A DNA stretch of 64,000 nt from an uncultured Thermoanaerobaculia bacterium (GTDB taxonomy: Bacteria > Acidobacteriota > UBA4820 > DSQY01): assembly GCA_964589625.1 (NCBI GenBank), contig CAZPSH010000001.1, positions 45,862-109,861 on the forward strand, read 5' to 3'. The stretch's first letter is position 1; each line of letters begins with the position of its first letter. The translations under genes and the position numbers were made by a program. The notes below the pieces were generated by a model. It had not been told where the DNA came from, did no database searches, and was given only the letters and a program-made list of their open reading frames with translations. Positions 10,064 through 64,000 of this stretch are shown here, piece after piece.

Positions 10064-10707
10064 GGCCAAATGCCCTCCATGGCCTCGCGCAGGGCGCGTC
10101 GCGCCCTCGCCAGACGGGACTTCACGGTTCCCTCCGGCACCCCCAGCAGGGAGGAGAGTTCGGCGTAATCGAGTTGTTCAACCTCCCTGAGGACGAGGAT
10201 CTCCCGGTGCTCGGCCGAGACCTTCGACAGGGCGACCCGCAGGGCCGCGTACAGCTCACCCCCCAGGACCTGCTCCGCGGGGTCGGGCGAGGGGTCCTTG
10301 ACGATCCTCAGGGGCCGTTCCTCGCGCTCTTCGTCCGTGCGGTCGAGGCTTTCCGCGGCGGAGTCCCTCCTGGCCGCCGCCGAACCGCGGGTCCTGCAGA
10401 CGTTGAGGGCGATCCCGTACAGCCACGTCCGAAAGGCGGCATCCCCCCGGAAAGAGCGTAATCCCCTGAAGGTCCGAAGGAAGATCTCCTGGGTCGCGTC
10501 CATGGCCTCCTCGGGATGGCGGAGCATGCGGAGCGAGAGGCGATAGACCGCGCGCTCGTGCCGCCGTACCAGGGATTCGAAGGCCGCTTCGTCGCCGGCC
10601 TGAAACCGGGTCACGTCACACTCGTCGTCGCTTGTCCCGCAGGCCACGCCCGCCAGGGAGGTATCCAATCCGTCCATGGGGAGAGGATAAACCCATTCGA
10701 TGGACAC
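10060..10707 (-). CDS. ECF RNA polymerase sigma factor
   Basis: Region 2 (DATQEIFLR, FRTWLYGIALN) and region 4.2 (GVPEGTVKSRLARAR); start at GTG 10707 or 10713. Confidence 0.94.
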   Translation of the reverse strand: MSIEWVYPLPMDGLDTSLAGVACGTSDDECDVTRFQAGDEAAFESLVRRHERAVYRLSLRMLRHPEEAMDATQEIFLRTFRGLRSFRGDAAFRTWLYGIALNVCRTRGSAAARRDSAAESLDRTDEEREERPLRIVKDPSPDPAEQVLGGELYAALRVALSKVSAEHREILVLREVEQLDYAELSSLLGVPEGTVKSRLARARRALREAMEGIWP

Positions 10708-10727
10708 GCGCACCCTCCAGGGGGATG

Positions 10728-10753
10728 AGACCTCGGAGGCAGCGATTGGTTCC
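10728..10753 (-). promoter_or_regulatory. ECF-type (autoregulatory) promoter
   Basis: Minus strand GGAACC(10753-10748)-16 nt-GTCT(10731-10728) just upstream of the sigma RBS. Confidence 0.55.
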
Positions 10754-10821
10754 CCGACAAGAGAAGGGTTTCCCCGTGCGGGGGGGAACAGGCGAGGCGC
10801 ACGGTCAATCTGCCCGCGGGC

Positions 10822-49081: not shown

Positions 49082-50163
49082 ACCCGCGCAGCCTTCTCGC
49101 CTCTTTCGGCCTGGGCACGGGTCACCACCGGGTCGCCGAGACCCTCCGCGGAAACCTCGAGGCGCTGGGGCATCGGGCTGCTGTCTCGCACCTCGAGGAC
49201 TGGGTTCCACGCGAATACGACTGGCTCTTTCGAAGGGGATACCTGGCTCTTGTGATGAAGTTCCCAAGAGGCTGGGACTTCCTGTACGGGTCCCCCTTTT
49301 TCGCCTCGCGGGGCCGCCTTGCCGTTCCCCCGCTTTCCGGTCGGGCCGCCCGCCGCTTCCAAGGGGAATCGGAGGGATCGGACCTGGTCGTAGCCACGCA
49401 GATCAACGCAATGGAAATCGCCGCCGACCTCAAAGCGTCGGGAAGGGCGAGGTTCCGGTTGGCCGTGGTGCTCACGGATTACGACTGCTACCCGGTCTGG
49501 GCCCGTCCCGAGGTGGACCTTTATCTTCTGCCTCACGAGGATTTGACCGAACCCTTCCTGGCACGGGGGGTGGCGGAGGACCGGCTTGCAGTCACGGGAA
49601 TCCCGATCGGATCCGGCTTCGAGGACATGTCGGCGGATCGGTCGGCCCTCTCCGAGCTGGGGCTGGACCGCGAGCGCCCGACGGCGCTCGTGATCGGGGG
49701 GGGGGTTGGGGCCGGACCCCTTCGGGAGGCCGCCATGGCGGCCCTGGGAATGCCCCACTGGAACGTGATCCTCGTCTGCGGCCTGAACGAGACGTTGCGG
49801 CGGGCCATGATCCCGGAAGCCCAGGACCACCCCGAGCGCCTGCGGGTTTTAGGCTACCGGACGGACCTTCCGGGGATCCTCGCCGCCTCCGACGTCCTGG
49901 TCACCAAAGGGGGCGGACTCACGCTCACGGAGGCCCTCGCCTCCGGAAAGCGGGCAGTGGTCCTGCCCAGCCTCCCGGGGCAGGAAAAGGCCAACATCGC
50001 CTTCATGGAATCGCGCCGGTGGATTGCCGTGTGCCGGGAGGTGGGCAGGATTCCCGACCACTTGGAAGCCGCTTTGGCCGCAGGACCAGGCCCCCGGCCC
50101 CTCCCCCAAAGGGCCGCCCAGAGGGCGGCAAACCTCCTGGATGGCCTCGCACGAAGGGCTTGA
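49078..50163 (+). CDS. MGDG-synthase/UgtP-like glycosyltransferase
   Basis: GTGHHRVA, VLTDY, TGIPI, GGGVG, LVTKGGGLTLTEA, PGQEKAN. Confidence 0.88.
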   Translation: MNPRSLLASFGLGTGHHRVAETLRGNLEALGHRAAVSHLEDWVPREYDWLFRRGYLALVMKFPRGWDFLYGSPFFASRGRLAVPPLSGRAARRFQGESEGSDLVVATQINAMEIAADLKASGRARFRLAVVLTDYDCYPVWARPEVDLYLLPHEDLTEPFLARGVAEDRLAVTGIPIGSGFEDMSADRSALSELGLDRERPTALVIGGGVGAGPLREAAMAALGMPHWNVILVCGLNETLRRAMIPEAQDHPERLRVLGYRTDLPGILAASDVLVTKGGGLTLTEALASGKRAVVLPSLPGQEKANIAFMESRRWIAVCREVGRIPDHLEAALAAGPGPRPLPQRAAQRAANLLDGLARRA

Positions 50164-50185
50164 ACCCAAAGACGACCTTGCGGGC

Positions 50186-52294
50186 TCACGGTTTCTTCGA
50201 TGCCTCGATCATCTCACGGACCAGAGCGTCCGCATCGTAGTACTTGTCCAATGCTTCGAGGATCCCTCGGACATCCACGGCCACGCAACGCGCCTGCCGC
50301 TCGTCGTAGACGAAGGAGTTCGGGTGGCTCTGGTCGTTCCCGTCGAAGACCAGGCCCACGAGGCTGCCGTCCCTCGCCACGACGGGGCTGCCCGAGTTCC
50401 CTCCCGTGATGTCGGCCGTGCAGACAAAATTGAGGGGTGTTTCGAGCCGCACCGAAGCCCGCCGCTCCCTCTGCCGGTCCGTGAGCACGAAGTCACCGCG
50501 GTCTCCGAAGGAGTAAGCCCGGTCGTACAAACCGTAAAAGGTCGTGAAGGGGGGCACGAGGGTGGAGGCGAAGGGATATCCGGACACCGTCCCAAAGGCC
50601 AGCCGGAGCGTTCCCGTGGCGTCCGAATAAGATTTGTCTCCGTACACCGCGAAGCCCGCCTGGGCGATGCGCGCGTAGGCGTCCTCTTCGACGGCCGTGA
50701 CGTGTTCGTCGTACCGGCGCTCCACCTCCCGGATGAAGGGATCGGCCCTCCGGGCCAGCCGAAGGAGGGGATCCTCGCTGGCCGCCACGCCCCTCCCGGC
50801 ATCCTTGAGCAGTTCCCGGCGGAAGGCGGCCTCGCCCAAGCGGGTTCCGGAAAGCGCTTTCCGCGCCGCCTCGCCTGGCGTTCTTCCTTCCAGGAGGGTT
50901 TTCACGTAGGGGTCCTCGGATCCGAACGTCTCCAGGAGCCGATTCAGGTCGTCGGTGAGGAACACCTCCTCCAAGTCGGTGTAGGTCGGGGAGGGACTTC
51001 CGAGCCGGCGAAGCACGGCGGGGAGGTCCGAGTCGTGGTAGCCCGCGATTCGCTCCGCGTCCGGCTTCCGGACCTCTTCGGCATAGCGGACGAGGGTGAG
51101 CGCGTGGGTGGTAAGACGCCCCCAGCCTCCTCCGGGCATGTCGCCTTTGAGTCGTTTCTCCGCCTCCTTCTCGGCCGCCCAGGCGTAGGCCTTCTCCAGG
51201 TCGCTCCAGGCGGAGCCATACAGGGCCTGGAGAGCGGGATCCCGCGAAACGGCCGCCAAGAGATCCGACTCGGCCGCTTTCTTCTTCGCCATGAGGGCTT
51301 CGTCCCTCAGCCCCCGGAGCTCCCCCTCGGTTGACTTCAGGGAGTTGGCGAAAAAGTAAAGGTTGGTGCGGGCCCTCCTGGCGGCCTCTGGACTTTTTGC
51401 GGAGTAGGCATTCAGGAGAGCCTGGCGGTGGAGCAGAGCCTCGATCTTCCGGGGGTGCGTCACGGTCCTGTAGTAGTTGAGGCCTGCGAGGGTGACGAGG
51501 CGGTCCGTGTCGCCCGGATGGCCGGAAACGAAGACCAGGTCTCCCTCCCGGCAACCGGCGGAATTGACGGGAAGGTAGTGGTCCACCCGGGCGGGCAGCC
51601 CTCCCTCGTAGGCGCGGAGGAAGGCCAGGTCCAGGTCGAACCGCGGGTACGTAAAATTGTCGTGGTCGCCTCCGAAAAAGGCGGCCTGCAATTCGGGCGC
51701 GAAGACCAGACGGACGTCCGTGTACTCCTTGTAGCGGTACAGGTGGTGCCGGGCTCCCCCGAAGAGGGCGACGATCTCCCCCTCGAGGCCCGTCATGCGC
51801 CGGCATTCGGATTCGATCGCGGCGGAGGCGGCGAGCCGCTTCTTCAAAGCCTCGGCCGGATTTGAGGCGCCCGCGCACGCGGCCTCGATCCGTGCGGTGA
51901 CATCCTGGATCGAGACCAGAACCCGGATCGTGAGGCCTGGGATCGGGATCTCCTTTTCGCGGGTGGGGGCGTAGAAGCCGTCCCGGACGTAGTTGTTTTC
52001 GGGGGAGGACAGGCGCTGTACAGACCCAAGGGCCACATGGTGATTCGTCAGGATGAGCCCCTCGGGAGATACGAAGGACGCCGAGGCGTGGACGTTCACC
52101 GAGGCCATGCGGAGTCGGTCCAGGAAAGCCGCGTCGGGCGCGAAGCCGTAGCGTTCCTTCAGGAGGTCCGCCGGAGGCCGCTCATAGAGCCACATCCCTT
52201 CGTCCGCCCGGACGGTAGAAGCCCCCGAGACGGCCGCGATCAGGGCCGCACAGAACACACCAAACCCGCCAGAGATCCACCGACCGGTTGCCAT
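50186..52294 (-). CDS. S46-family dipeptidyl peptidase (DPP7/DAP BII-like)
   Basis: DEGMW, TNHHVA, DITGGNSGSP, FDG at the S1 position. Confidence 0.94.
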   Translation of the reverse strand: MATGRWISGGFGVFCAALIAAVSGASTVRADEGMWLYERPPADLLKERYGFAPDAAFLDRLRMASVNVHASASFVSPEGLILTNHHVALGSVQRLSSPENNYVRDGFYAPTREKEIPIPGLTIRVLVSIQDVTARIEAACAGASNPAEALKKRLAASAAIESECRRMTGLEGEIVALFGGARHHLYRYKEYTDVRLVFAPELQAAFFGGDHDNFTYPRFDLDLAFLRAYEGGLPARVDHYLPVNSAGCREGDLVFVSGHPGDTDRLVTLAGLNYYRTVTHPRKIEALLHRQALLNAYSAKSPEAARRARTNLYFFANSLKSTEGELRGLRDEALMAKKKAAESDLLAAVSRDPALQALYGSAWSDLEKAYAWAAEKEAEKRLKGDMPGGGWGRLTTHALTLVRYAEEVRKPDAERIAGYHDSDLPAVLRRLGSPSPTYTDLEEVFLTDDLNRLLETFGSEDPYVKTLLEGRTPGEAARKALSGTRLGEAAFRRELLKDAGRGVAASEDPLLRLARRADPFIREVERRYDEHVTAVEEDAYARIAQAGFAVYGDKSYSDATGTLRLAFGTVSGYPFASTLVPPFTTFYGLYDRAYSFGDRGDFVLTDRQRERRASVRLETPLNFVCTADITGGNSGSPVVARDGSLVGLVFDGNDQSHPNSFVYDERQARCVAVDVRGILEALDKYYDADALVREMIEASKKP

Positions 52295-52395
52295 GACTCC
52301 TCCCCACGACGTGTCGGCGCCCGGCCCGCACCGCCGGTGCGCGAAAAACCTTGTACGCAACAAGGATTCCAGAAGTTTCAGCGCGTCCGGTGGGC

Positions 52396-53298
52396 TCACC
52401 CCCGCCCAGGCTGGCGCTGCCTTTTCCAAAGTGCGAAGGCGGTGGGCTGGCGGAAGCGCCCGATGACGTCGGAGGCCTCCAGGACGCTCACGAAGGCATG
52501 CGGGTCTTCGGCTCGGACGATGTCCCGAAGTTCCCGCAGTTCGTAACGCGTGATGACGCAGAGCAGGGCGTCCTGCTCCTGCCCGCTGAAGGCGCCCTGG
52601 GCCTTCAGAAGCGTCACGCCCCGCGCCATCTCGTTGAGGATCCTCCTCTGGATCTCGGTGGGGCGAGACGAGACGATCAGGACGGCCTTGCGGGGACGGG
52701 GGGCCATCATGGCGTCCATGGCCCGCCCCCCCGCGTAGATGGCCACCAGGGTATACATGGCCCTTTCGGGGCTCTCGAGGAGGCCGGAGGCCACGACAAG
52801 AGCCCCGTTGAGAAAAAGCTGAACTTCACCCACGCCCAAACTGAAGCGCCGGTTCAGAACCACGCCCAGGATATCGAATCCGCCGAGGGAGCCCCCCGAG
52901 CGGAGAGCCAGGGCACCCGCGACGCCGCCCAGGACCCCGCCGAAGATGGCGGCAAGGAGGGGGTCCTGCGTGAGCGGGGGGACGGGCAAGTAATCGGCCG
53001 TGAGCCAGAATCCCACCACCGCCGCCCCCGAAAGGGCCGCGAACCTCTTGCCCACGTCCCAGGCTCCCAGGAGAAAGATCGGGACGTTGAGGAGAAAGAC
53101 GAGGAGGCCGACGGGCCATTTGAAGAGCGCGTGGGACAGGAGGGCCAGGCCCGTGACGCCGCCGCTGAGAAGCTGGTTCGGGATGAGGAAGGCCTTCACC
53201 GCCACCACGAAGCCGAGGAGGCCAATCCCCAGAAGCGTCCAGCACCAGACGGCCGATGCGGCTTTCCTTGCCTTCAAACGGATCGCGCGGCCTCGCAT
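52396..53298 (-). CDS. YitT-family membrane protein
   Basis: LLSGGVTGLA, GGSLGGFDIL, RGVTLL, DPHAFVSV. Confidence 0.92.
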   Translation of the reverse strand: MRGRAIRLKARKAASAVWCWTLLGIGLLGFVVAVKAFLIPNQLLSGGVTGLALLSHALFKWPVGLLVFLLNVPIFLLGAWDVGKRFAALSGAAVVGFWLTADYLPVPPLTQDPLLAAIFGGVLGGVAGALALRSGGSLGGFDILGVVLNRRFSLGVGEVQLFLNGALVVASGLLESPERAMYTLVAIYAGGRAMDAMMAPRPRKAVLIVSSRPTEIQRRILNEMARGVTLLKAQGAFSGQEQDALLCVITRYELRELRDIVRAEDPHAFVSVLEASDVIGRFRQPTAFALWKRQRQPGRG

Positions 53299-53365
53299 GA
53301 CTTGAGAGCTTAGCAGAAGGCGCCTCGCCTTTGCACCCCCTGGGGACCCTTTTCCCGCCGGGTGC

Positions 53366-53394
53366 TTGCGAGAAGCGCCCGCAGGGCCTATATT
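53366..53394 (+). promoter_or_regulatory. sigma70 promoter of ssrA
   Basis: TTGCGA-17 nt-TATATT. Confidence 0.65.
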
Positions 53395-53413
53395 GCACAC
53401 GGCACGAAACCCC

Positions 53414-53759
53414 GGGGGCGAAACGGTTTCGACGGGGATGTGCGGGAGGTGGTCGCGCGCCGAGTTCCGGGCTCTCGTAAAACGACCGGAAAACTTCAAC
53501 TGCCAACGACAACTTGGCACTGGCGGCGTAAGCCCGCCACGTTCCTGATGGTTTCGCCCGCGGGCTTTCAGGAACGACGCTAGCGGGATGCTCCGGTTCG
53601 GTTCTCCCCGGCCGAATCGGAAAAGACCCAGGGGATAGCGACCCGCCGAATTGCCGGCTCCAGAGGCGGTAAGCGAAGGTTCAAGGAACCGGCTACGCGC
53701 GTAGACGCTGCCTTGGCCGGCATTTTCGGACGCGGGTTCGACTCCCGCCGCCTCCACCA
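53414..53759 (+). ncRNA. ssrA: tmRNA; tag peptide ANDNLALAA (53502-53531)
   Basis: 5' GGGGGCGAAACGGTTTCGAC, 3' GGGTTCGACTCCCGCCGCCTCCACCA, internal tag ORF. Confidence 0.97.
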
Positions 53760-53768
53760 GAAGACCTG

Positions 53769-53795
53769 AAGGGAGGGCCTCGCCCTCCCTTTTTT
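53769..53795 (+). terminator. Intrinsic terminator after ssrA
   Basis: AAGGGAGGGC-CTC-GCCCTCCCTT followed by a T-run. Confidence 0.85.
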
Positions 53796-54004
53796 GCACG
53801 CGTATGGTTTGGCTCGCGGGAGTCGAAGCCCCAGAGGGGACCCTGAGGGGCGCGAGCGAGAGCGCGACCGAAGAGGGAGCGATCGCAAGCCGCGGCCCCA
53901 GGGGAGAGGCTGGGGCCGGGAACGCTCGGGAAGGGCACGGCTTGCCCTCCGTATCGAGGGGCCCCTATACTTCGCGCATAGGCACGAAGGGAAGGGGGCC
54001 CGCC

Positions 54005-55480
54005 ATGTTCGAGACGGCGGAACTCGGCCAGCGCGTTTCGAAGGAGGCGTACAGGAAGGCCGTCGGGCCGCTCCGCAGCGCCTTGCTCGAAGTACAGAAG
54101 GATCTCGCGGCCTCGAACGTGGCGGCGGTGGTCCTCGTGGGAGGAGTGGAGGGAGCGGGGAAGGCCGAAACGATCAACCGGCTTCTGGAATGGGTGGATG
54201 CCCGTGGGGTGGAAATCCACGCCCTTTCCGATCCCACCGACGAGGAGCGCGAGCGGCCCACCATGTGGCGGTTCTGGAGGAGGCTTCCTCCGAAGGGCCG
54301 GATGGGGATCTTTCTAGGGTCCTGGTACACGGCGCCCATCGTGGAGCGGACCTTCGGGCGAATCGGGGACGGCGGCTTCCACAGACGGCTGGACGCCATC
54401 TCCGAATTCGAAAAGATGCTCGACCAGGAGGGCGTCGCCCTGGTCAAAGTCTGGCTTCACATCTCCAAGGACCTCATGCGGCGGCGCCTCAGGGACTTGG
54501 AGAAGGACGCCGAACAGCGTTGGCGGGTCACCCCGCGCGACTGGAAGTTCTTCGGAAAGTACGACCGGTTCCGGTCCGTGTCCGAGCAGGCGCTCCTGCA
54601 TACATCCACAGGGTGGGCGCCGTGGCACATCGTGGAGGCGACGGACGGCCGGTACCGCGACCTGAAGGTGGGGGAGATCCTGTTGGAGGGTCTGAAAGAG
54701 AAGTTAAGACGCCAATCGGAGGCTCCCCCCCCGGAAAGGCACCCGTATCTGGCCAAGCCGCCCGAAGTAAACGTGTTGCGAGCCCTCGACCTCGGAAAGA
54801 AAGTGGAGGAGAAGCGCTACGAAAAGGCGCTGGTGAGAAAGCAGGCCGAACTCTCCTATCTTACGCGCCGCCTTTACCAGGAGAAGCGATCTTTGATCCT
54901 GGTTTTCGAGGGACCCGACGCCGCCGGGAAGGGGGGGGCCATCCGGCGCCTCACGGCGGCCATGGACATGCGAAACGCGCGTCACATATCCATCGCCGCC
55001 CCAACGGAGGAGGAGCGCGCCCATCCCTATCTATGGCGCTTTTGGCGGCACCTGCCCCGTCTCGGACGGGTGACCATCTTCGACCGCTCCTGGTACGGGC
55101 GGGTGCTCGTGGAGAGGGTGGAGGGGTTCTGCACCAAGGCGGAGTGGCAGCGGGCCTACGCGGAGATCAACGCCTTCGAGGAAGATCTGGCGCGGTTTGG
55201 GTACATCCTGCTGAAGTTCTGGCTCGCCATCTCCGCCAGGGAGCAGTTGAGGCGGTTCAAGGAGCGTCAGGAGACTCCCTACAAGCAGTACAAGATCACG
55301 CAGGAGGATTGGCGGAACCGGGCCAAGTGGGACGCCTACGAGGCGGCGGCCCTGGACACCTTCGAGCGGACCAGCACGAGCAAGGCCCCCTGGGTGCTCG
55401 TGGAGGCCGAAGACAAGAACTACGCTCGGCTGAAGGTGCTGGAAGAGGTGATTCGGCACCTGGCCTTCCTCCGAAGGTGA
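54005..55480 (+). CDS. ppk2: Two-domain polyphosphate kinase 2 (polyP:AMP phosphotransferase)
   Basis: MFETAELG start; GVEGAGK and EGPDAAGKGG, FDRSWYGRVLVERVEG; TTGCCC-18-TATACT promoter candidate at 53942-53971. Confidence 0.94.
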   Translation: MFETAELGQRVSKEAYRKAVGPLRSALLEVQKDLAASNVAAVVLVGGVEGAGKAETINRLLEWVDARGVEIHALSDPTDEERERPTMWRFWRRLPPKGRMGIFLGSWYTAPIVERTFGRIGDGGFHRRLDAISEFEKMLDQEGVALVKVWLHISKDLMRRRLRDLEKDAEQRWRVTPRDWKFFGKYDRFRSVSEQALLHTSTGWAPWHIVEATDGRYRDLKVGEILLEGLKEKLRRQSEAPPPERHPYLAKPPEVNVLRALDLGKKVEEKRYEKALVRKQAELSYLTRRLYQEKRSLILVFEGPDAAGKGGAIRRLTAAMDMRNARHISIAAPTEEERAHPYLWRFWRHLPRLGRVTIFDRSWYGRVLVERVEGFCTKAEWQRAYAEINAFEEDLARFGYILLKFWLAISAREQLRRFKERQETPYKQYKITQEDWRNRAKWDAYEAAALDTFERTSTSKAPWVLVEAEDKNYARLKVLEEVIRHLAFLRR

Positions 55481-55596
55481 TTTCCGTCTGCAGTAGAGCC
55501 GCCAATCACGCAGCTAGGACGCGCCACAACCACGTCCTGCCAGGTCTCCGGGTCGCGTAAACGCATTCCCGCGGGAGATCCCAGCGATCGCGGCAC

Positions 55597-55642
55597 TTGT
55601 GTTCCTCGGGCCGGGGTGCTACGCTTTTCAAATAGGTGGCAC
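55597..55642 (+). promoter_or_regulatory. Promoter with overlapping NikR-like operator
   Basis: TTGTGT-17 nt-TACGCT with extended -10 TG; GTGCTAC-N13-GTGGCAC at 55616-55642. Confidence 0.65.
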
Positions 55643-55677
55643 GCCAGCCCAAAGAGGCACGGGGACGGAGAGAGGAA

Positions 55678-57645
55678 ATGGGGAAACGGAAACCAGCCGG
55701 GCAAAACAGGGGTCTTGCGGCCCTCCTCGGCTTCGTGCTGTGCGTTTGGATTCGGGGCAAGGCTCCGACGGCCACCCTAGAAGGGGAGGTGGATATCCCC
55801 GAGGAGAGGTACGCCGGATCCACCGAAGTGACGGTGAGCGCCCAACCCATCGCGGAGAGCCTGGAGAGCACTCCCCAAGGTACGATCGTGGCCGAGGTCT
55901 CCGAGGGACAGCTGGAGGACCTCCACGCCCAAGACCTGGCGGGTGCCCTGCGGCGCATTCCGGGGCTCACCATCAGCCGCTACAACCCCGTGGGCGGCTA
56001 CGGCGGAGCGGACGGTGGGGCCGTGTACATCCGGGGCCAGGGGGCGGGGCGCCCGGGGGGGGAGGTGGCCACCCTCGTGGACGGCGTTCCGGTAGTGGTC
56101 TCTGTGTGGACCCATCCCATCCTGGACCTGCTCAACACCGACGCGGCGAAGTCGATCCAGGTGTACAAAAGCCCCGAGCCCGTTCTCTTCGGAAACATGG
56201 CCTTCGGTGCCGTGAACTTGACTCCCAAGAGGCCTTCCGAGGTTGCTGGTGGCAAGGCGGTCCTCTTCGGAGGGTCCTATTCCCAGTTCGGCGTAAAGGT
56301 CGAGGAGGGCATCCCCGTGGGGCGGGGCGGGCTCTATCTGCAGGGAAGCCTCCTTCGAAGCGACGGCCACCGGGAGCACGCCGCGGGCCGGGTGGCGAGG
56401 GCCTACGGAAGGGCCGAGGTGGACCTTTCGGACAACTGGAACGCATCGTTTCAGATCCACCATACGGATTCCTGGGCCGAAGACCCCGGAAGGGAGGAGG
56501 TCCCCAGACCCCCCGTGACCCCCCGCTATCCCATACGGAACACCCTGCTCCTCGGCACCTTGGAAAACCGTTTCTCCTGGGGAGACGGGTACGTGAAGGT
56601 GTACGACAACGACGGGGTCGCCCGCTGGCTCCAGTGGGATACGGGGGCGGGCCACGCCTTCGTGACCCGGACCGAATACGAAGGGTACGGCGTGAGGATT
56701 CGACAGAACCTCGCGCCTTGGGCCGGCGGGCGCATTACCGTGGGAATGGACGACGACGTCTTCGGCGGACATTTTCAGGAACTCCGGCCTTACCCGACGC
56801 GCCCGAGCCCTCGGCGGCTCTTCCGAAACCGGGCTCCCTATCTTCTTTTAAGCCAGACCTTCGGAGAGGCCCTCCGGGTCACTCCTTCCTTCGGGATCCG
56901 GGTCAACGACGCCCGCTACTTCGAAGATCAGACCGGTCGCCAGTTCGGCCTCACGGCGGTCTGGAAAGGGCTCGTCTTCCACGCCGGGCGCTCCCGCTCC
57001 TTCAACTATCCCGGCGTGTACGCCGCCGTCATGTTCGGCCCGTCCTATCCGGATCGGAAATGGACGGGCCTGAAGGCCGAAACCTTGACGCACGCGGAGC
57101 TGGGGGCGGGGTACGACGCGGGAGGTCCCGTCTCCGCTGACCTGACCCTCTTTTCGGACGAGGTGGAAGATGCCCTCCGCTTCGCGCCTCCCCCGCCTTT
57201 CCCGCCCGGTTTCGTCAACATCGGCGCCTACACGGTCAAGGGCGCCATGGGGGAACTGAGGCTGGCCCCCTCGCCGCGGGTTGCCATGTTCTTGGGCGCA
57301 TGCACGACCTCCACGGGACGCGCGGATGTCCCCGAAACGCCCAAGTGGACCCTCTCGGGCGGCGTTACGGCGGTGGCGGCCGGAGGGATCCGGATCTCCG
57401 GTGACGCACAATACGTTGGGGCGCGAAACGTGCTGAATCCCCGCTTCGCGCGCACCCAGGAGCGGATCGGAGCGTATTTCCTCCTCAACGCGAGGATCGC
57501 CAAATGCCTGCGAGAGGCCGGCTCGGGCGCTTCGGGCGAAGTTTACGTGGCTGGAGAGAACCTCCTCGACCGGGATTACTCTTTCCGCCCCGGCTATCCC
57601 ATGGCAGGGATCAACGGGTCCGTCGGCCTGGCGTTGCGCTGGTAA
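55678..57645 (+). CDS. TonB-dependent outer-membrane receptor (predicted nickel)
   Basis: EVTVSA TonB box, plug (LRRIPGL, IRG, LVDGVP, IQVYKSP), GENLLD, terminal W. Confidence 0.92.
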   Translation: MGKRKPAGQNRGLAALLGFVLCVWIRGKAPTATLEGEVDIPEERYAGSTEVTVSAQPIAESLESTPQGTIVAEVSEGQLEDLHAQDLAGALRRIPGLTISRYNPVGGYGGADGGAVYIRGQGAGRPGGEVATLVDGVPVVVSVWTHPILDLLNTDAAKSIQVYKSPEPVLFGNMAFGAVNLTPKRPSEVAGGKAVLFGGSYSQFGVKVEEGIPVGRGGLYLQGSLLRSDGHREHAAGRVARAYGRAEVDLSDNWNASFQIHHTDSWAEDPGREEVPRPPVTPRYPIRNTLLLGTLENRFSWGDGYVKVYDNDGVARWLQWDTGAGHAFVTRTEYEGYGVRIRQNLAPWAGGRITVGMDDDVFGGHFQELRPYPTRPSPRRLFRNRAPYLLLSQTFGEALRVTPSFGIRVNDARYFEDQTGRQFGLTAVWKGLVFHAGRSRSFNYPGVYAAVMFGPSYPDRKWTGLKAETLTHAELGAGYDAGGPVSADLTLFSDEVEDALRFAPPPPFPPGFVNIGAYTVKGAMGELRLAPSPRVAMFLGACTTSTGRADVPETPKWTLSGGVTAVAAGGIRISGDAQYVGARNVLNPRFARTQERIGAYFLLNARIAKCLREAGSGASGEVYVAGENLLDRDYSFRPGYPMAGINGSVGLALRW

Positions 57646-57662
57646 AGGGAGGGGAACAGCCC

Positions 57663-58664
57663 ATGCACATTCCGGACGGCTATCTGGGACCGGCCACCGC
57701 TCTCGCGACCTGGGGGATCATGATCCCCGTCTGGGGAGCGGCCCTGCGGCATCTTCGCAAGCGCCTAGACGTGCGTCGAATCCCCCTCCTTTCCCTGGGC
57801 GCCGCCTTCTCCTTTCTCGTCATGATGTTCAACATCCCCATACCCGGGGGGACCACGGGCCACGCGGTTGGCAGCGTGCTCGTAGCCCTTCTCCTAGGAC
57901 CGTGGGCCGCCGTGATCTCCGTGTCCCTGGCCCTGGCCCTGCAAGCGCTCCTATTCGGGGACGGAGGGATCACGGCCCTGGGCGCCAACTGCCTGACCAT
58001 GGCGGTGGTCATGCCCGCCGCGGGGTGGGCTGTCTTCCGCCTGGTGGGGACGACGGCGCCCGAAACCCGCCGCCGGTACCTGGCGGCCGGATTCGCGGGG
58101 TACGCGGGCCTGAACGCCGCGGCCCTCGCCACGTCGGTCCTCCTCGGCATTCAGCCGCTCCTGGCGAGCGATGCTTCGGGACGGCCTTTGTACTGTCCCT
58201 ACGGACTTGGCGTGGCCGTCCCCGTGATGGCCGCCGAACACCTTCTGCTCTTCGGCTTCGTGGAAGCCATCGTGACCGCAGTGGCGCTGAAATGGCTGGA
58301 CAGGACCGAACCGGGGCTGGCCGCCGCGCCTCCCGCCTCGGCCCCGCCCCCGCGCTCCCTGAGCTTGTGGCGGGGGCTCCTCGTCCTGCTCGTCTTGACG
58401 CCCATGGGCTTCCTCCTTCCGCGATGGGCAGGGGCAGGGGCGGCTTGGGGCGAGTGGTCGCCCGAGGGTCTGGCCGCCCTGCTGGGGTACGTGCCGGCGC
58501 GGCTCGAACGGTGGGCGGCCTTCTGGAGGGCGCCCGTGCCCGACTACGCGGAGGAAGCCGGTCCCCTGGGATACCTGCTCGCGGGCGCCTTGGGGCTCGC
58601 GGTCCTCGGGGTCCTGTACCTGGGCTTGCGGACCGTCACGCGCGTTAGGGGCGACCGTGGCTGA
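57663..58664 (+). CDS. nikMN: ECF Ni/Co transporter S component, NikM/CbiM fused to NikN-like domain
   Basis: N-terminal MHIPDGYL, GGTTGH, ALLFGDGG, C-terminal WRAPVPDY. Confidence 0.88.
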   Translation: MHIPDGYLGPATALATWGIMIPVWGAALRHLRKRLDVRRIPLLSLGAAFSFLVMMFNIPIPGGTTGHAVGSVLVALLLGPWAAVISVSLALALQALLFGDGGITALGANCLTMAVVMPAAGWAVFRLVGTTAPETRRRYLAAGFAGYAGLNAAALATSVLLGIQPLLASDASGRPLYCPYGLGVAVPVMAAEHLLLFGFVEAIVTAVALKWLDRTEPGLAAAPPASAPPPRSLSLWRGLLVLLVLTPMGFLLPRWAGAGAAWGEWSPEGLAALLGYVPARLERWAAFWRAPVPDYAEEAGPLGYLLAGALGLAVLGVLYLGLRTVTRVRGDRG

Positions 58665-59577
58665 GGTTCCGGGCTGGCTTCTCGAAGGCGCATCGGGTGC
58701 GGGGGCAGGCCGGGTGGGGGGGACGCGCGCGGCTCGCGCGAGAACCGAGGGCCTCAGACGGGCTCTTCTCGCCTTGTCCGGCCTTTGGACCCACACGGAG
58801 GACCGGCCCCGCTCGGGTCTCTTCGCGCTTGCCGATCGCGTTGGCCCCGCTTCGCTCGTGGCCACCGTGCTGGTCGGGATCCTGGCGGTGGCGACCGCTC
58901 GGACTCCCATCCTCCTCGGAGGCCTTCTGGCGGTGCCCCTCGGGGGGCTTCTCGCCAGCGGAGGCGGGCGGGGCCGGCCCGCCGCCCTCGTGGTGGCTTC
59001 CGCTCTCTTCTCGTCCATCGTTGCCTTTCCCGCTCTTTTCGCCTGGATCTCTCCGGGTCAGGTTCTGTTCCCGCCTTCCGCGCAGGCGGAGGGGGGGGCA
59101 CCTCCCTGGGCCGTCACGGGCACGGGAGTCTACCTGGCGGGGCGGCTCGTGTTGCGATCCACGGGATCCGTCGCCTGGATCGCCCTCCTGGGGCATTTGT
59201 TGCCCTTCGATGGCGTCCTGAAGGGCCTCGCGGCTTGGCGGGTTCCATCCCTCCTGCTTGCCCTCTTGTCCATGGGGCACAGATACCTGGAGGTCCTGTC
59301 CCGATGCGCCCAGGAGATTCACCTGGCCCGGCTCAGCCGGACCCTCTCCAGCGGCGGTCTCCGGGAGGAGCAAGCCTGGGTAGGGGCGGGCGTGGGCAGC
59401 CTTTTCCGGAGGACCCGGCGCCTGGCGGAGGAGGTTGCCCTCGCCATGGTTTCGCGGGGCTGCACGGCGGAGGCCCCCCAGTTGGTCGGTATATCACCGC
59501 TTGCACCGAAGGCGCTCCTCTTGCCCGCGGCCTCGGCGGGGCTCGCGCTTTTTCTGCTCTGGTTGGAGAGACAATGA
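58657..59577 (+). CDS. nikQ: ECF transporter T component (NikQ/CbiQ)
   Basis: Multi-TM, HRYL, ARLSR, AMVSRG. Confidence 0.85.
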   Translation: MAEVPGWLLEGASGAGAGRVGGTRAARARTEGLRRALLALSGLWTHTEDRPRSGLFALADRVGPASLVATVLVGILAVATARTPILLGGLLAVPLGGLLASGGGRGRPAALVVASALFSSIVAFPALFAWISPGQVLFPPSAQAEGGAPPWAVTGTGVYLAGRLVLRSTGSVAWIALLGHLLPFDGVLKGLAAWRVPSLLLALLSMGHRYLEVLSRCAQEIHLARLSRTLSSGGLREEQAWVGAGVGSLFRRTRRLAEEVALAMVSRGCTAEAPQLVGISPLAPKALLLPAASAGLALFLLWLERQ

Positions 59578-60407
59578 ACGACCTCGAAAAGTGGCCTCTC
59601 TTTGAGGTAAGGGGAGTGACCTTCGCCTACCCCGGCCGCCCGCCGAGCCTGGAGGAGGTCTCCTTCACCGTGGGGAAGGGTGAGCGGGTGGCCCTTCTGG
59701 GCGCAAACGGGTCGGGCAAGACCACGCTCCTCCTCCTGCTCGACGGGCTCTACTTCCCCAACAAGGGCCGGGTCTATTTCGAAGGGGATCCCATCGAGGC
59801 CCAAACGCTGGAAGGGAAAGAGGCGGGGCGCGCCTTCCGGAGGCGAGTGGGCCTCCTCTTCCAGAACCCGGACGCCCAGCTCTTCAGCCCTTCGGTGGCG
59901 GATGAACTGTCCTTCGCCCCGAGACAGCTGGGCCTCCCGGCCGAAGAGGCCGCGGATCGGGTGGAGTCCGTCTTGACATTGATGGAGATCTCGAATCTGC
60001 GGGACCGCCCGCCCCAGAGCCTCAGCGCCGGAGAGAAGAAGCGCGTGGCCCTGGCTTCCCTCCTCACGGCGGGTCCCTCGGTGCTCCTTCTGGATGAGCC
60101 CACGGCGGGGCTCGACCCGCGAAGCCAGTCACGCCTTCTCGATATCCTGGAACACCTTCACGAGGCGGGCCTCACCCTGGTCACGGCCACCCACGAGCTT
60201 CTCCTGTTGCCGCACCTTGCGGACAGGGCCGTAGTCTTGTCTCCGGACCACCGACTCGTCGCCGACGCCGCGGCGGAGGCGGTCCTGGCGGACCTCCCCC
60301 TGTTGGATAGCGCCAATTTGATCCACGTCCACTCGCACCGCCACGGGAACGTTCTCCACCGCCACCCCCATCTCCACTGGGCCGGCCATCACCACGGGGA
60401 GCATTGA
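59574..60407 (+). CDS. nikO: ECF transporter ATPase (NikO/CbiO) with His-rich tail
   Basis: GANGSGKT, FQNPDAQLF, LSAGEKKRVA, LDEPTAGLD; HVHSHRH...HRHPHLH...HHHGEH. Confidence 0.92.
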   Translation: MNDLEKWPLFEVRGVTFAYPGRPPSLEEVSFTVGKGERVALLGANGSGKTTLLLLLDGLYFPNKGRVYFEGDPIEAQTLEGKEAGRAFRRRVGLLFQNPDAQLFSPSVADELSFAPRQLGLPAEEAADRVESVLTLMEISNLRDRPPQSLSAGEKKRVALASLLTAGPSVLLLDEPTAGLDPRSQSRLLDILEHLHEAGLTLVTATHELLLLPHLADRAVVLSPDHRLVADAAAEAVLADLPLLDSANLIHVHSHRHGNVLHRHPHLHWAGHHHGEH

Positions 60408-60452
60408 GAGCGAACCGCGTCCCTCGGGAGGCCGCAAGAGGGGTTCCCCAAC

Positions 60453-60481
60453 TTGACCTACCCGTCTGGATTCGCTATAAT
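60453..60481 (+). promoter_or_regulatory. Consensus sigma70 promoter of the tRNA gene
   Basis: TTGACC-17 nt-TATAAT. Confidence 0.85.
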
Positions 60482-60493
60482 TGTCCGTCTGGT

Positions 60494-60569
60494 GGGGCTA
60501 TGGCGCAGCTGGGAGCGCGCTTGAATGGCATTCAAGAGGTCGGGGGTTCGATCCCCCCTAGCTCCACCA
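60494..60569 (+). tRNA. tRNA-Ala(GGC)
   Basis: 76-nt cloverleaf, anticodon arm CTTGA-ATGGCAT-TCAAG, TTCGATC T-loop, encoded CCA. Confidence 0.98.
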
Positions 60570-60605
60570 AAAAAATCTCCCGCCCTTGTGTGACGGGCGA
60601 TCCGG

Positions 60606-60632
60606 CGCCGGAGAGAGATCTCCGGCGTTTTT
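60606..60632 (+). terminator. Intrinsic terminator after the tRNA
   Basis: CGCCGGAGA-GAGA-TCTCCGGCG followed by TTTTT. Confidence 0.85.
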
Positions 60633-60699
60633 CATAGAAAAAGGATGGTCCGTGGGTCGCCGCGCGGCACGCGGCGGATCTTGAGGGAGGCGGACGGGA

Positions 60700-62361
60700 G
60701 TGGGCGTTCGATGGGTCGCGCAATCGGGGATGGAGGGCCGCCGGGCCGAGATCGCGCTCCGGTTCGGACTCTCCCGAACGGCCGCGCTTCTCCTGGCCGT
60801 TCGCTTCCCTGACGACGAGGGGCTCGCCGAGTACCTGGACCCCTCTCGGGTCGAGTGGCCCGACCCCCTGCGCATCCCCGACTTGAAGGAAGCGGCGGAC
60901 CGCGTCGCCCGCGCCGTTAAGGCGGGCGAGAAAATCTTCGTCCACGGGGACTACGACGTGGACGGGCTCATGGGGGCCGCGGTCCTCGTAGGTGCGCTCA
61001 GAACCCTGGGGGCCTCTCCCGACGTGTACATCCCGTCGCGCTTCGAGGGGGGATACGGGCTCTCCGAGGCCAGCGTGGCCGCGGCCCTCGCGGCGGCGTC
61101 ATCCCTGGTTCTCACGACGGATTGCGGCACGAACGCAAGGGAGGCGGGCGCCGATCTGGAGAGGCGCGGGGTGGACCTCGTCGTAACGGACCACCACGTG
61201 CCCGCCGCGGGCCAGCAGCCTCCCGGGTTGATCGTCAATCCCCACATGGAGCCGGACCACGCCGATAGGGCCCTCTGCGGAACCCTCGTGGCGCTCCAAC
61301 TCGTCCGCCGCATAGGGGACATCTTGGGGCGCCCCCTGAACCTGGAGCCCTTCGTGCGGCTCGGCGCCATCGCCACCGTTGCGGACGTCAGCCCCTTGAC
61401 GCCCCTCAACCGACGCGTCTGCCGGGAAGGATTCGCGGCCCTCGCCACGACGCCCAATCTGGCCCTGGCGAGGATGTTCAAAGCCGCCGGCGCCGACGGC
61501 CGGATCATGGGCCACCACATCGCCTTCCACATCGCGCCGCGGTTCAATGCCGCCGGGCGCATCGAGGATGCCCGCCTCGTGCTCGACCTGCTCCTGGAGA
61601 GGGACCCCGCCCGGGCCGCGGCCCTGTCTGGCCGCCTCGAGGGCCTCAACCGGAGGAGGCGGGCCCTGCAGGCCGCCGCCTACGACGACGCCTCGGCGAG
61701 GGTCCGGGAGGCCGCCGAGGGTCCCGTCCTCTTCGTGGCGTCGGGACGCTGGCACCGGGGTGTCCTGGGGCCCGTGGCGGCCCGTCTCGCAGAGTCCTTC
61801 CGGAAGAGCGCCTTCGTCGTGTCCGTGGAAGGGGGAATCGGAACCGGTTCCGCCCGCTCGTGGGGGGGCGAAAACGTCGTGGCGCTGCTCGATCGCTGCT
61901 CGGATCTGCTTCTTCGGTACGGGGGGCACGGGGGCGCGGCGGGGTTCAGCGTCGAGGCGGACAAAATCGCCGACTTGGAGGAGAGGGTTCAGGCGGAGGC
62001 CGCCGAAAGACCGCTCGAAGCATCCGCGCCGTGCATGTATGTTCCGATCCATCCCGAGGACATCCCGGCGCTATGGGACGCGTGGGAGGTCATGGACCCC
62101 TTCGGCCCGCTCAACGACGAGCCCACGGTGGGAATCGAGGGGCTGTACGCCAAGGGGTGCCGCGTGCTCAACGGAAAGCACCTCATGTGGGAGGCGGAAG
62201 CGACGGGCGGCGGGCGGCTCACGGTGATCGCCTGGGACGGGTTGAACCGGGGCCTGAGTCCTTCCTCCCTGACGCCCTCGGCGCTCGTCATCGGAAAACC
62301 CGCGCCCGAACAGAGGCCCGTGACGCTTCCCTTCTACCTGAACCTGCTCGATATCTGCTGA
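60700..62361 (+). CDS. recJ: Single-stranded DNA exonuclease RecJ
   Basis: HGDYDVDG, TDCG, TDHH, TVADV, PRFNAAGR, GGHGGAAG. Confidence 0.93.
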   Translation: MGVRWVAQSGMEGRRAEIALRFGLSRTAALLLAVRFPDDEGLAEYLDPSRVEWPDPLRIPDLKEAADRVARAVKAGEKIFVHGDYDVDGLMGAAVLVGALRTLGASPDVYIPSRFEGGYGLSEASVAAALAAASSLVLTTDCGTNAREAGADLERRGVDLVVTDHHVPAAGQQPPGLIVNPHMEPDHADRALCGTLVALQLVRRIGDILGRPLNLEPFVRLGAIATVADVSPLTPLNRRVCREGFAALATTPNLALARMFKAAGADGRIMGHHIAFHIAPRFNAAGRIEDARLVLDLLLERDPARAAALSGRLEGLNRRRRALQAAAYDDASARVREAAEGPVLFVASGRWHRGVLGPVAARLAESFRKSAFVVSVEGGIGTGSARSWGGENVVALLDRCSDLLLRYGGHGGAAGFSVEADKIADLEERVQAEAAERPLEASAPCMYVPIHPEDIPALWDAWEVMDPFGPLNDEPTVGIEGLYAKGCRVLNGKHLMWEAEATGGGRLTVIAWDGLNRGLSPSSLTPSALVIGKPAPEQRPVTLPFYLNLLDIC

Positions 62362-62463
62362 CGGGGGTGGCGTGCCCCACTTCCCGCAGGGGCCGAAGGA
62401 GGCCCCTTCCTACGCGCGGAGGCCATGGGGTAGACTCCACGCCTGTCTACGAGAGGAACGAAC

Positions 62464-64000
62464 ATGCCGAAATGGGTCTTTTTCTTCGGGAACGGGAAGG
62501 CGGAGGGTCACGGGAAGCAGAAGGAGCTTCTCGGCGGCAAGGGGGCCGGGCTTGCGGAGATGACGAACCTTGGCATCCCGGTCCCTCCGGGTTTCACCAT
62601 CACGACCGAGGTGTGCACCTATTTCTACGCCAACGGCCGCACCTACCCGGCCGACCTTCGGGCGCAGGTGGAGGAGGCCCTTGCCGGCGTCGAGGGCATC
62701 ATGGGGCGGACCTTCGGGGATCCGGCCAACCCGTTGCTGTTTTCGGTCCGCTCGGGGGCCCGGGCCAGCATGCCGGGCATGATGGACACGGTCCTCAACC
62801 TCGGCCTCAACGACGCCACGGTGGAGGGCCTGGCGACTCGGACGGGCAACCCCCGTTTCGCCTGGGACTCCTATCGCCGCTTCGTGGCCATGTACGGAGA
62901 CGTGGTCCTCGGGCTCAAACCGGTGGACAAGAAGGAGGAGGATCCCTTCGAGGTGATCCTCGAGAAGGTCAAGCACGAGGCCGGCGCCCGGTTTGACACG
63001 GACCTCGGCGCAGAAGACCTCCGGCGCCTCGTAACCCTTTTCAAGGACGAGATCAAGGCGCGGGTGGGCGTCGATTTCCCGGAGGACCCGAGGGAACAGC
63101 TGTGGGGCGCCATCGGAGCCGTCTTCGGCTCGTGGATGAATGACCGCGCCATCGCGTACCGCAAGCTGTACGACATCCCCGGGGACTGGGGCACGGCCGT
63201 CAACGTCCAGACCATGGTCTTCGGCAACCTGGGAGACACATCGGGCACGGGCGTGGGTTTCACGCGGGATCCGGCCTTGGGCGAGAACCGGATGTACGGC
63301 GAGTTCCTCATGAACGCGCAGGGCGAGGACGTGGTGGCGGGCATCCGCACACCCAGGCCCATCGCGGAGCTCGGACAGGTTCTCCCCCAGGCCTACGAGC
63401 AGCTCGTGGGCATCCGGAACACCATCGAAAGGCACTTCCGGGATATGCAGGACTTCGAGTTCACCATCGAGGAGGGGCGGCTCTGGATGCTGCAAACCCG
63501 CACGGGAAAGCGCCACCCCTTCGCGGCGGCCCGGATGGCGGTGGACATGGAGGCCGAGGGCCTTATCTCGGAGAAGGAGGCTGTTCTCAGGCCCGAGGCC
63601 GACGGCATCGCCGCCTTTCTGTCGCCCATCTTCGACGCAGGCGCCAAGCTCCAAGCCGTTCGGGAGAAGCGCATCGTGGCCAAGGGACTCCCTGCGGGGC
63701 CGGGTGGCGCCTCGGGCCGGGTCGTGTTCAACGCCGTGGACGCGGAGGCGTGGGCCAAGCGGGGCGAGAAGGTCCTCCTGGTCCGCAAGTTCACGAGCCC
63801 CGAGGACATCCGCGGCATGAACGCCGCCCAGGGGATCCTTACGGCCATGGGCGGAATGACCTCCCACGCGGCCCTGGTGGCCCGCCAGATGGGGAAGGTC
63901 TGCATCGTCGGGTGCGGAGCCCTCGACATCGACTATGCCAAAGGGGAAATGCAGGTAGGGGATAGCGTCATCCGAGAGGGGGACTGGCTCTCCATTGACG
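62464..64000 (+). CDS. ppdK: Pyruvate, phosphate dikinase (3' end runs off the window; not in the ORF track)
   Basis: [44 protein letters not shown] phospho-His motif. Confidence 0.97.

Follow-up and report, generated by a model that had tools for sequence, protein, structure and literature searches.

The operon and its predicted operator

The window, a 64,000-nucleotide stretch of DNA from an uncultured Thermoanaerobaculia bacterium of the phylum Acidobacteriota (contig CAZPSH010000001.1), contains four closely spaced genes (Table 1) that encode a TonB-dependent outer-membrane receptor (P0003) and the components of an energy-coupling factor (ECF) importer: Nik(MN) (P0001), NikQ (P0002) and NikO (P0004). 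Nik(MN), which starts with MHIPDG, is encoded 17 nucleotides after the receptor gene; nikQ and the end of nik(MN) share 8 nucleotides, nikO overlaps nikQ by ATGA, and the next gene after nikO, for a tRNA, has a strong promoter of its own. A 198-bp gap on the 3' side of a two-domain ppk2 gene (53804-55480) holds the dyad GTGCTAC-N13-GTGGCAC, a predicted operator of the regulator NikR, 36 bp on the 5' side of the receptor start. This succession of a dyad over an extended -10 element, a receptor, Nik(MN), NikQ and NikO had been picked out in an earlier reading of the letters alone (the sequence-only reading), and was confirmed by sequence and domain searches. It is interpreted here, with a probability of roughly 0.78, as a nickel-repressed operon of four genes for the uptake of nickel across both membranes.

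Table 1. Positions in the window of the four genes and of the elements predicted in front of them.
Feature	Position	Strand	Basis or remark
Putative -35 hexamer TTGTGT (weak)	55598..55603	+	16-nucleotide spacer to the -10 element
NikR operator dyad GTGCTAC-N13-GTGGCAC (predicted)	55616..55642	.	Sequence, conservation, published consensus
Putative TG-extended -10 element TGcTACGCT	55617..55625	+	Overlaps the left operator arm
TonB-dependent outer-membrane receptor, P0003, 655 aa	55678..57645	+	Plug PF07715 at 7.9e-16
Nik(MN), ECF S component NikM with N-like two-helix tail, P0001, 333 aa	57663..58664	+	CbiM PF01891 at 1.3e-58
NikQ, CbiQ-type ECF T component, P0002, 306 aa	58657..59577	+	PF02361 at 2.2e-14; TIGR02454 at 3e-24, below cut-off
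NikO, CbiO-type ECF ATPase, P0004, 277 aa	59574..60407	+	PF00005 at 4.5e-32; TIGR01166 cbiO at 4.3e-59

The two arms of the dyad (GTGCTAC at 55616-55622 and GTGGCAC at 55636-55642) are complementary at six of seven positions and are separated by an A+T-rich spacer of 13 nucleotides, gcttttcaaatag; only one of the 14 arm positions differs from an ideal palindrome if Y or R is allowed. The consensus published for NikR sites of delta-proteobacteria, located upstream of nik(MN)QO, is GTGTTAC-[N13/14]-GTAACAC (Rodionov et al. 2004, PMC545781), as the sequence-only reading had correctly stated. Published variants of the site include GTgACAC and GTGccAC (PMC545781), the latter being the complement of the right arm in the window. 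The nik(MN)QO operons of Geobacter and Desulfuromonas (PMC545781) share with this one the operator architecture, nearly identical half-sites, a site close upstream, and a fused Nik(MN) with NikQ and NikO, but the operon of the window belongs to the phylum Acidobacteriota, begins with a TonB-dependent receptor and is not linked to nikR.

For a site predicted from sequence, conservation in orthologous loci is stronger evidence than occurrence alone, and the dyad is conserved. In two sister genomes that possess the receptor (G001 and G004, with 89% and 82% protein identity, respectively), GGTGCTAC and the right arm, GTGGCACGC, are invariant amid diverged sequence: the spacer varies (gctttcttataaa or tattttcaattag), and the flanks in G004 are largely different. 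Thirteen further genomes of the family possess nik(MN) without the receptor, and each of these loci has the same type of dyad, GTG(C/T)(T/C)AC-N13/14-GT(A/G)(G/A)CAC (for example, GTGCTAC-N13-GTAGCAC, GTGTTAC-N14-GTAACAC and GTGTTAC-N13-GTGGCAC); every plus-strand match lies 5' of the operon. In G003, a genome of the same genus, the site reads exactly GTGCTAC-N13-GTGGCAC on the complementary strand, with identical arms inverted relative to the genes; the site follows the same ppk2 gene and has the same layout of -35, TG and -10 elements. Because the G003 site is inverted, an RNA hairpin formed from it would have a C-A mismatch, and the conservation is therefore at the level of DNA.

The sequence-only reading had placed nikR outside the window and had proposed a search of the genome for this gene and for additional sites. 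A nikR gene was found on contig C23, in the region of positions 10538-10762 (NikR_C PF08753 at 5.1e-28, 98.8 bits); its product keeps the nickel site THVHLDxHxC (H-x-H-x5-C) and the upstream His cluster. A degenerate NikR pattern has a single match in the 3.06-Mb genome of 67% G+C, which is the dyad at 55616-55642, and a relaxed scan also gave this dyad as the only match at ≤1 mismatch and the best in the genome. At ≤2 mismatches there were 11 matches, none of them by hydrogenase, LarA or nikR loci as judged by contig and position. Six of the 11 were inspected as candidates for further NikR sites and rejected as coding sequence or promoter look-alikes (queA).

The TGCTAC of the putative -10 element is invariant across the window genome, G001 and G004, and the CTTG core of the -35 region is kept in G001 and G004. 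The promoter is nevertheless only a proposed one, because a consensus promoter scanner made no call there; each hexamer matches at three of six positions. Strings that resemble the -10 element, TGCTACGCT and TGCTATCCT, are found just 5' of other open reading frames (the queA start at C22:6411, and C37:4470), which suggests that a TG-extended -10 similar to TGcTACGCT is a house promoter motif, common in this organism, that inflates the number of matches to the left half-site.

If NikR acts at this site, a nickel-loaded NikR tetramer would bind the dyad when nickel is plentiful, covering the extended -10 element and the start-site region and excluding RNA polymerase, and would leave the DNA when nickel is scarce, so that one transcript is made for all four proteins. 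The receptor may bring nickel, as the free ion or as a small chelate, across the outer membrane with energy from TonB/ExbBD, and Nik(MN)QO would move Ni2+ into the cytoplasm, with NikM predicted to coordinate the ion in square-planar geometry through four nitrogens, supplied by the amino group of Met1, by His2 and by His67. [NiFe] hydrogenases and LarA are the likely consumers of the nickel.

The receptor family and the receptor slot

P0003 has a signal peptide, a plug and a 22-strand barrel, and its gene is preceded by a good ribosome-binding site. Residues 48-55 (STEVTVSA) resemble a TonB box, by eye only; TonB is present in the genome, which has six TonB_C matches. Plug is the only domain that Pfam detects in P0003; PF00593 was undetected there and is on record for several homologues. 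An AlphaFold2 model has the plug-and-barrel fold (predicted local distance difference test, pLDDT, 78; predicted template modelling score, pTM, 0.80) and has 194 matches in the PDB at E ≤ 0.001, of which the approximately 45 listed are all TonB-dependent transporters. The best Foldseek match is E. coli BtuB (2GSK, 1NQG), the closest solved fold, likewise a compact 22-strand barrel with a plug, at a template modelling (TM) score of 0.80-0.85 (on BtuB) and only 16-17% identity; a phmmer search with P0003 matched no chain in the PDB.

Homologues of the receptor at 31-48% identity were traced to their contigs in seven metagenome contexts and 30 GTDB genome loci, the latter from Acidobacteriota, Verrucomicrobiota, Victivallales, delta-proteobacterial metagenome-assembled genomes (MAGs) and one alphaproteobacterium. 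A nikR gene lies within 5 kb of the receptor gene in 17 of the 30 GTDB loci, and within 5 kb directly upstream in four of the seven metagenome contexts. Downstream, the metagenome receptors are accompanied by genes for CbiM, CbiQ and ABC proteins, by a ZnuA-type ABC system, or by genes for an ECF S-like protein, a methyltransferase, CbiQ and an ABC ATPase. The 37 receptor loci (392 kb) contain 21 NikR-type dyads at ≤1 mismatch, nearly all of them in the regulatory region of nikR or of the receptor. Two loci, L026 and L028, have no dyad at this threshold; L026 has a weaker one, GTATGAA-N13-GTAATAC, before nikR, and L028 has none. The weaker homologues at L028 and L029 have no nikR nearby.

The boxes of the family vary in type and in order. 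Reversed-order boxes precede receptor genes at L025:2839-2865 (GTAACAC-N13-GTGTTAC) and L027:4962-4988 (GTAGTAC-N13-GTATTAC); a reversed arrangement, GTAACAC-N-GTGTTAC, has been described before, with a case in Desulfotalea (PMC545781). The DNA-reading strand of NikR is RFGVSM in the window genome and in L025, where it pairs with arms of the GTG(C/T)TAC type (reversed in L025), and VRLSFSI in L023 and L024, where it pairs with GTATTAC/GTAATAC boxes. Such tracking of box type with the DNA-reading strand would be expected of true regulator-operator pairs, although the independent points are few.

A UbiE-like S-adenosylmethionine (SAM)-dependent methyltransferase recurs beside receptor homologues (L024:7977-10628, L026:6962-9373, L023:10505-11179 and L027:7048-7590). 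The gene order in L024 and L026 is nikR, receptor, small protein, methyltransferase, CbiQ, ABC protein; the small protein is ECF S-like only in L026, and weakly, and has no Pfam match in L024. The methyltransferase gene of L023 follows a ZnuA-type ABC system, and that of L027 has no nikR nearby.

NikR-linked TonB-dependent receptors were predicted earlier (Bll6948, Daro_3944 and RPA_4757) and have been demonstrated in H. pylori (FrpB4 and FecA3) (PMC11247825, PMC3400609). A previously predicted cluster of Ni/Co receptors includes Bll6948, Daro_3944 and pHCG3_081. By description, the NikR-linked receptors resemble the system of the window, in which an outer-membrane TonB-dependent receptor controlled by NikR works together with a nickel importer of the inner membrane. 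The operator sequence of H. pylori is unrelated to that of the window, and the P0003 family, unlike the earlier systems, spans Acidobacteriota, Verrucomicrobiota, Desulfobacterota-type MAGs and Ralstonia. A gene of the nicotianamine synthase type (PF03059) was not found in the genome, so that nothing points to an opine nickelophore made by the organism itself; this result concerns opine-type chelators only.

The receptor family extends to plasmids. A tblastn search with P0003 against 72,556 plasmids (E ≤ 1e-8) found full-length homologues, of 36% identity, only on Ralstonia megaplasmids; there was no pHCG3 record among the matches, the presence of pHCG3 in the collection being unchecked. The Ralstonia solanacearum homologue (CP047139.1, L089:3440-6577) has as its neighbours, in one annotated region (H9), a gene for a 'copper uptake system-associated protein' on one side and a DUF2946 gene on the other, and it keeps the family-invariant residues W144/H146/P147, H231/R232, DPG269-271 and H472. 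H146, H231 and H472 were considered as a nickel signature and rejected, because this copper-context homologue keeps all three. It is therefore probable that some members of the family, with identical invariant residues, belong to copper contexts, and the family may be a lineage of metal-ion receptors that differ in specificity.

In relatives without the receptor, the position between the NikR box and nik(MN) is occupied by a gene for an exported protein of approximately 220 aa (L076-L088, including G003 at L080:837-1499), and further loci encode it at L025:5444-6124 and L090:3191-4654. This protein belongs to no Pfam family and was not detected in the window genome. The mature N-terminus, CYSGL, is invariant. 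The AlphaFold2 model (pLDDT 75) has 12 antiparallel strands, and its best compact structural matches are the porin KdgM (TM 0.71-0.72), NanC and a designed 12-strand barrel. There are 45 clusters of the protein in a large protein collection, none of which is named beyond 'hypothetical protein'. In three of three distant contexts its gene directly precedes genes for a CbiM-type (nik(MN)-like) protein, CbiQ and an ABC protein, once right after nikR, and the L025 contig carries nikR, the receptor, a cupin, the 220-aa protein and nik(MN)QO together. By its modelled fold, the barrel is a candidate for a dedicated outer-membrane nickel channel, replaced in the window genome by a TonB-dependent receptor. 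The position that the receptor holds is thus a slot for an outer-membrane protein across the group, and this supports uptake across two membranes.

The assignment of nickel as the substrate of P0003 is due to its regulation and its operon partners. Conceivably the operon is regulated by nickel but the receptor carries another substrate, such as copper or an organic nutrient, and nickel enters by general porins; the Ralstonia homologue with its invariant residues, the two loci without nikR nearby (one of which has no box either) and the lack of a solved relative of the receptor by sequence are consistent with this. Such a division of labour is very unlikely, however, because the receptor gene is the first behind the operator and close to nik(MN), more than half of the receptor-family loci adjoin nikR, and the same slot in relatives is taken by a porin-like barrel whose gene strictly accompanies nik(MN)QO, which argues that the slot encodes the outer-membrane step of nickel entry.

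Nickel versus cobalt

Generic annotation names the components of the system for cobalt or cobalamin, as the sequence-only reading had foreseen: the best NCBIfam matches of the importer proteins are all named 'cobalt transporter CbiM/CbiQ/CbiO', and two homologues of P0003 are named 'outer membrane cobalamin receptor' by the Joint Genome Institute (JGI). P0001 scores 298 bits against NF008873 (cut-off 225) and 365 bits against NF005598, aligned over residues 1-323, including the C-terminal two-helix tail; PF13190 (PDGLE) was undetected in it and is on record for homologues. The natural fusion of M and N is shared with Nik(MN)QO of Rhodobacter capsulatus (PMC3945884). P0001 matches the nickel-binding TtNikM2 (4M58) at 221 bits over residues 1-215 versus 51 bits for RcCbiM (5X3X), and keeps the TtNikM2 residues M1, H2, T65, H67, Q94, G101, G102 and N109, among them all coordinating residues; the His and Glu of the hydrogen-bond network (PMC3945884) are likewise conserved. 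Unlike TtNikM2 and the R. capsulatus importer, the predicted system described here has an ATPase with a His-rich tail. This C-terminal tail of NikO has 12 His in its last 27 residues (60325-60404) and, by sequence, appears to resemble those of nickel-handling proteins such as HypB.

These residues cannot decide between nickel and cobalt, because the metal site of NikM is also that of CbiM, and Co2+ is bound by TtNikM2 too (PMC3945884). Together with the cobalt names, the cobalamin-receptor names and the BtuB-like fold, this would fit an operon for cobalt, for nickel and cobalt mixed, or for corrinoids, in which a BtuB-like cobalamin or cobalt gate serves a CbiMNQO importer. The rest of the evidence leaves little room for such an operon. 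A permissive cmscan of 50000-64000 against Rfam found only a tmRNA and one tRNA, in agreement with the earlier observation that no B12 riboswitch is visible, whereas the only cobalamin riboswitch of the genome (RF00174, 106 bits) is located elsewhere, at C22:27390-27569, before the gene for a permease of the FecCD/BtuC type. P0003 is far below the cut-offs of the BtuB equivalog (21.6 bits versus 599.7 for TIGR01779, and 15.6 versus 836 for PRK10641). CbiC was not found in the 98%-complete genome, and hence no demand for free cobalt is apparent; the riboswitch-permease pair and the failure to find CbiC point to salvage of B12 rather than synthesis. The better match of P0001 to NikM2 than to CbiM, the NikR box and the family-wide linkage to nikR all point to nickel.

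P0001 is the only CbiM-family protein encoded in the genome, which also encodes at least two large subunits of [NiFe] hydrogenases and LarA. The hydrogenases, LarA, the failure to find CbiC, the riboswitch located elsewhere, the presence of TonB and the His-rich tail of NikO make up a genome context that favours nickel. The sequence-only reading had proposed a nickel-specific TonB receptor as part of an importer of nickel or a nickelophore that spans the outer and inner membranes: a two-membrane importer under NikR control is supported, whereas its specificity for nickel is deduced from regulation, the metal site being one shared with CbiM that takes Co2+ as well (PMC3945884).

Weight of the evidence and significance

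Several points weigh against a nickel operon controlled by NikR. Dyads as close to the consensus are expected by chance at 0.7 per genome of this composition in a Markov simulation, and four were found in a reversed-sequence control; with approximately 0.7-4 chance dyads per genome, the occurrence of one somewhere in the genome is unremarkable. The left arm doubles as the -10 element, and its conservation could partly reflect promoter function alone. A second NikR site was not found in the genome by the scan at ≤2 mismatches, and the region upstream of nikR on C23 has no NikR box. Since the full-length Ralstonia homologue of the receptor is encoded in a copper-annotated context, membership in the receptor family does not by itself fix nickel as the substrate, and selectivity for nickel over cobalt cannot be read from the sequence of the importer. 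The organism is an uncultured MAG, for which NikR binding and expression are matters of prediction.

On the other side, the genome has a single nik operon, and the probability that a chance dyad would fall within the 198 bp preceding it is approximately 5e-5 to 3e-4. The least probable of the alternatives is that the dyad is no NikR site but a promoter combined with a repeat of chance or structural origin, a site for a different regulator, or a leader RNA hairpin. In favour of this, the left arm and the extended -10 element overlap, TGCTACGCT-like strings stand just 5' of unrelated open reading frames, chance dyads are expected, and RNA pairing of the plus-strand arms would be possible with a single G-U. 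Against it, the right arm is invariant in three genomes, the dyad recurs in both orientations before nik operons with different first genes, the G003 mismatch places the conservation in DNA, the left arm is upstream of the putative transcription start site, and homologous receptor loci carry matching boxes beside nikR.

The arrangement of a NikR-linked receptor with a nik operon is not new in kind, having been predicted since 2004-2008 and partly demonstrated (PMC545781, PMC11247825, PMC3400609). The operon of the window extends the delta-proteobacterial type of NikR operator to Acidobacteriota, a phylum about which little is known, and replaces a likely 'cobalt/B12' annotation there by one of nickel uptake. 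It also provides comparative evidence that a family of TonB-dependent receptors without characterised members belongs to NikR regulons.

The route of nickel through the outer membrane has been established in very few bacteria, and a clean natural comparison for this step is provided by the sister genomes, in which receptor and mini-porin are swapped. It is possible, although on balance doubtful, that in Acidobacteriota and Armatimonadota the first gene of nik(MN)QO operons under NikR control encodes a dedicated outer-membrane nickel gate with two interchangeable forms, a KdgM-like mini-porin or a TonB-dependent receptor. If this is true, the mini-porin would be, to our knowledge, the first porin family dedicated to nickel, and the receptors would form a nickel (or metal-ion) lineage whose specificities could be mapped by regulatory context, given the copper-context branch in Ralstonia.

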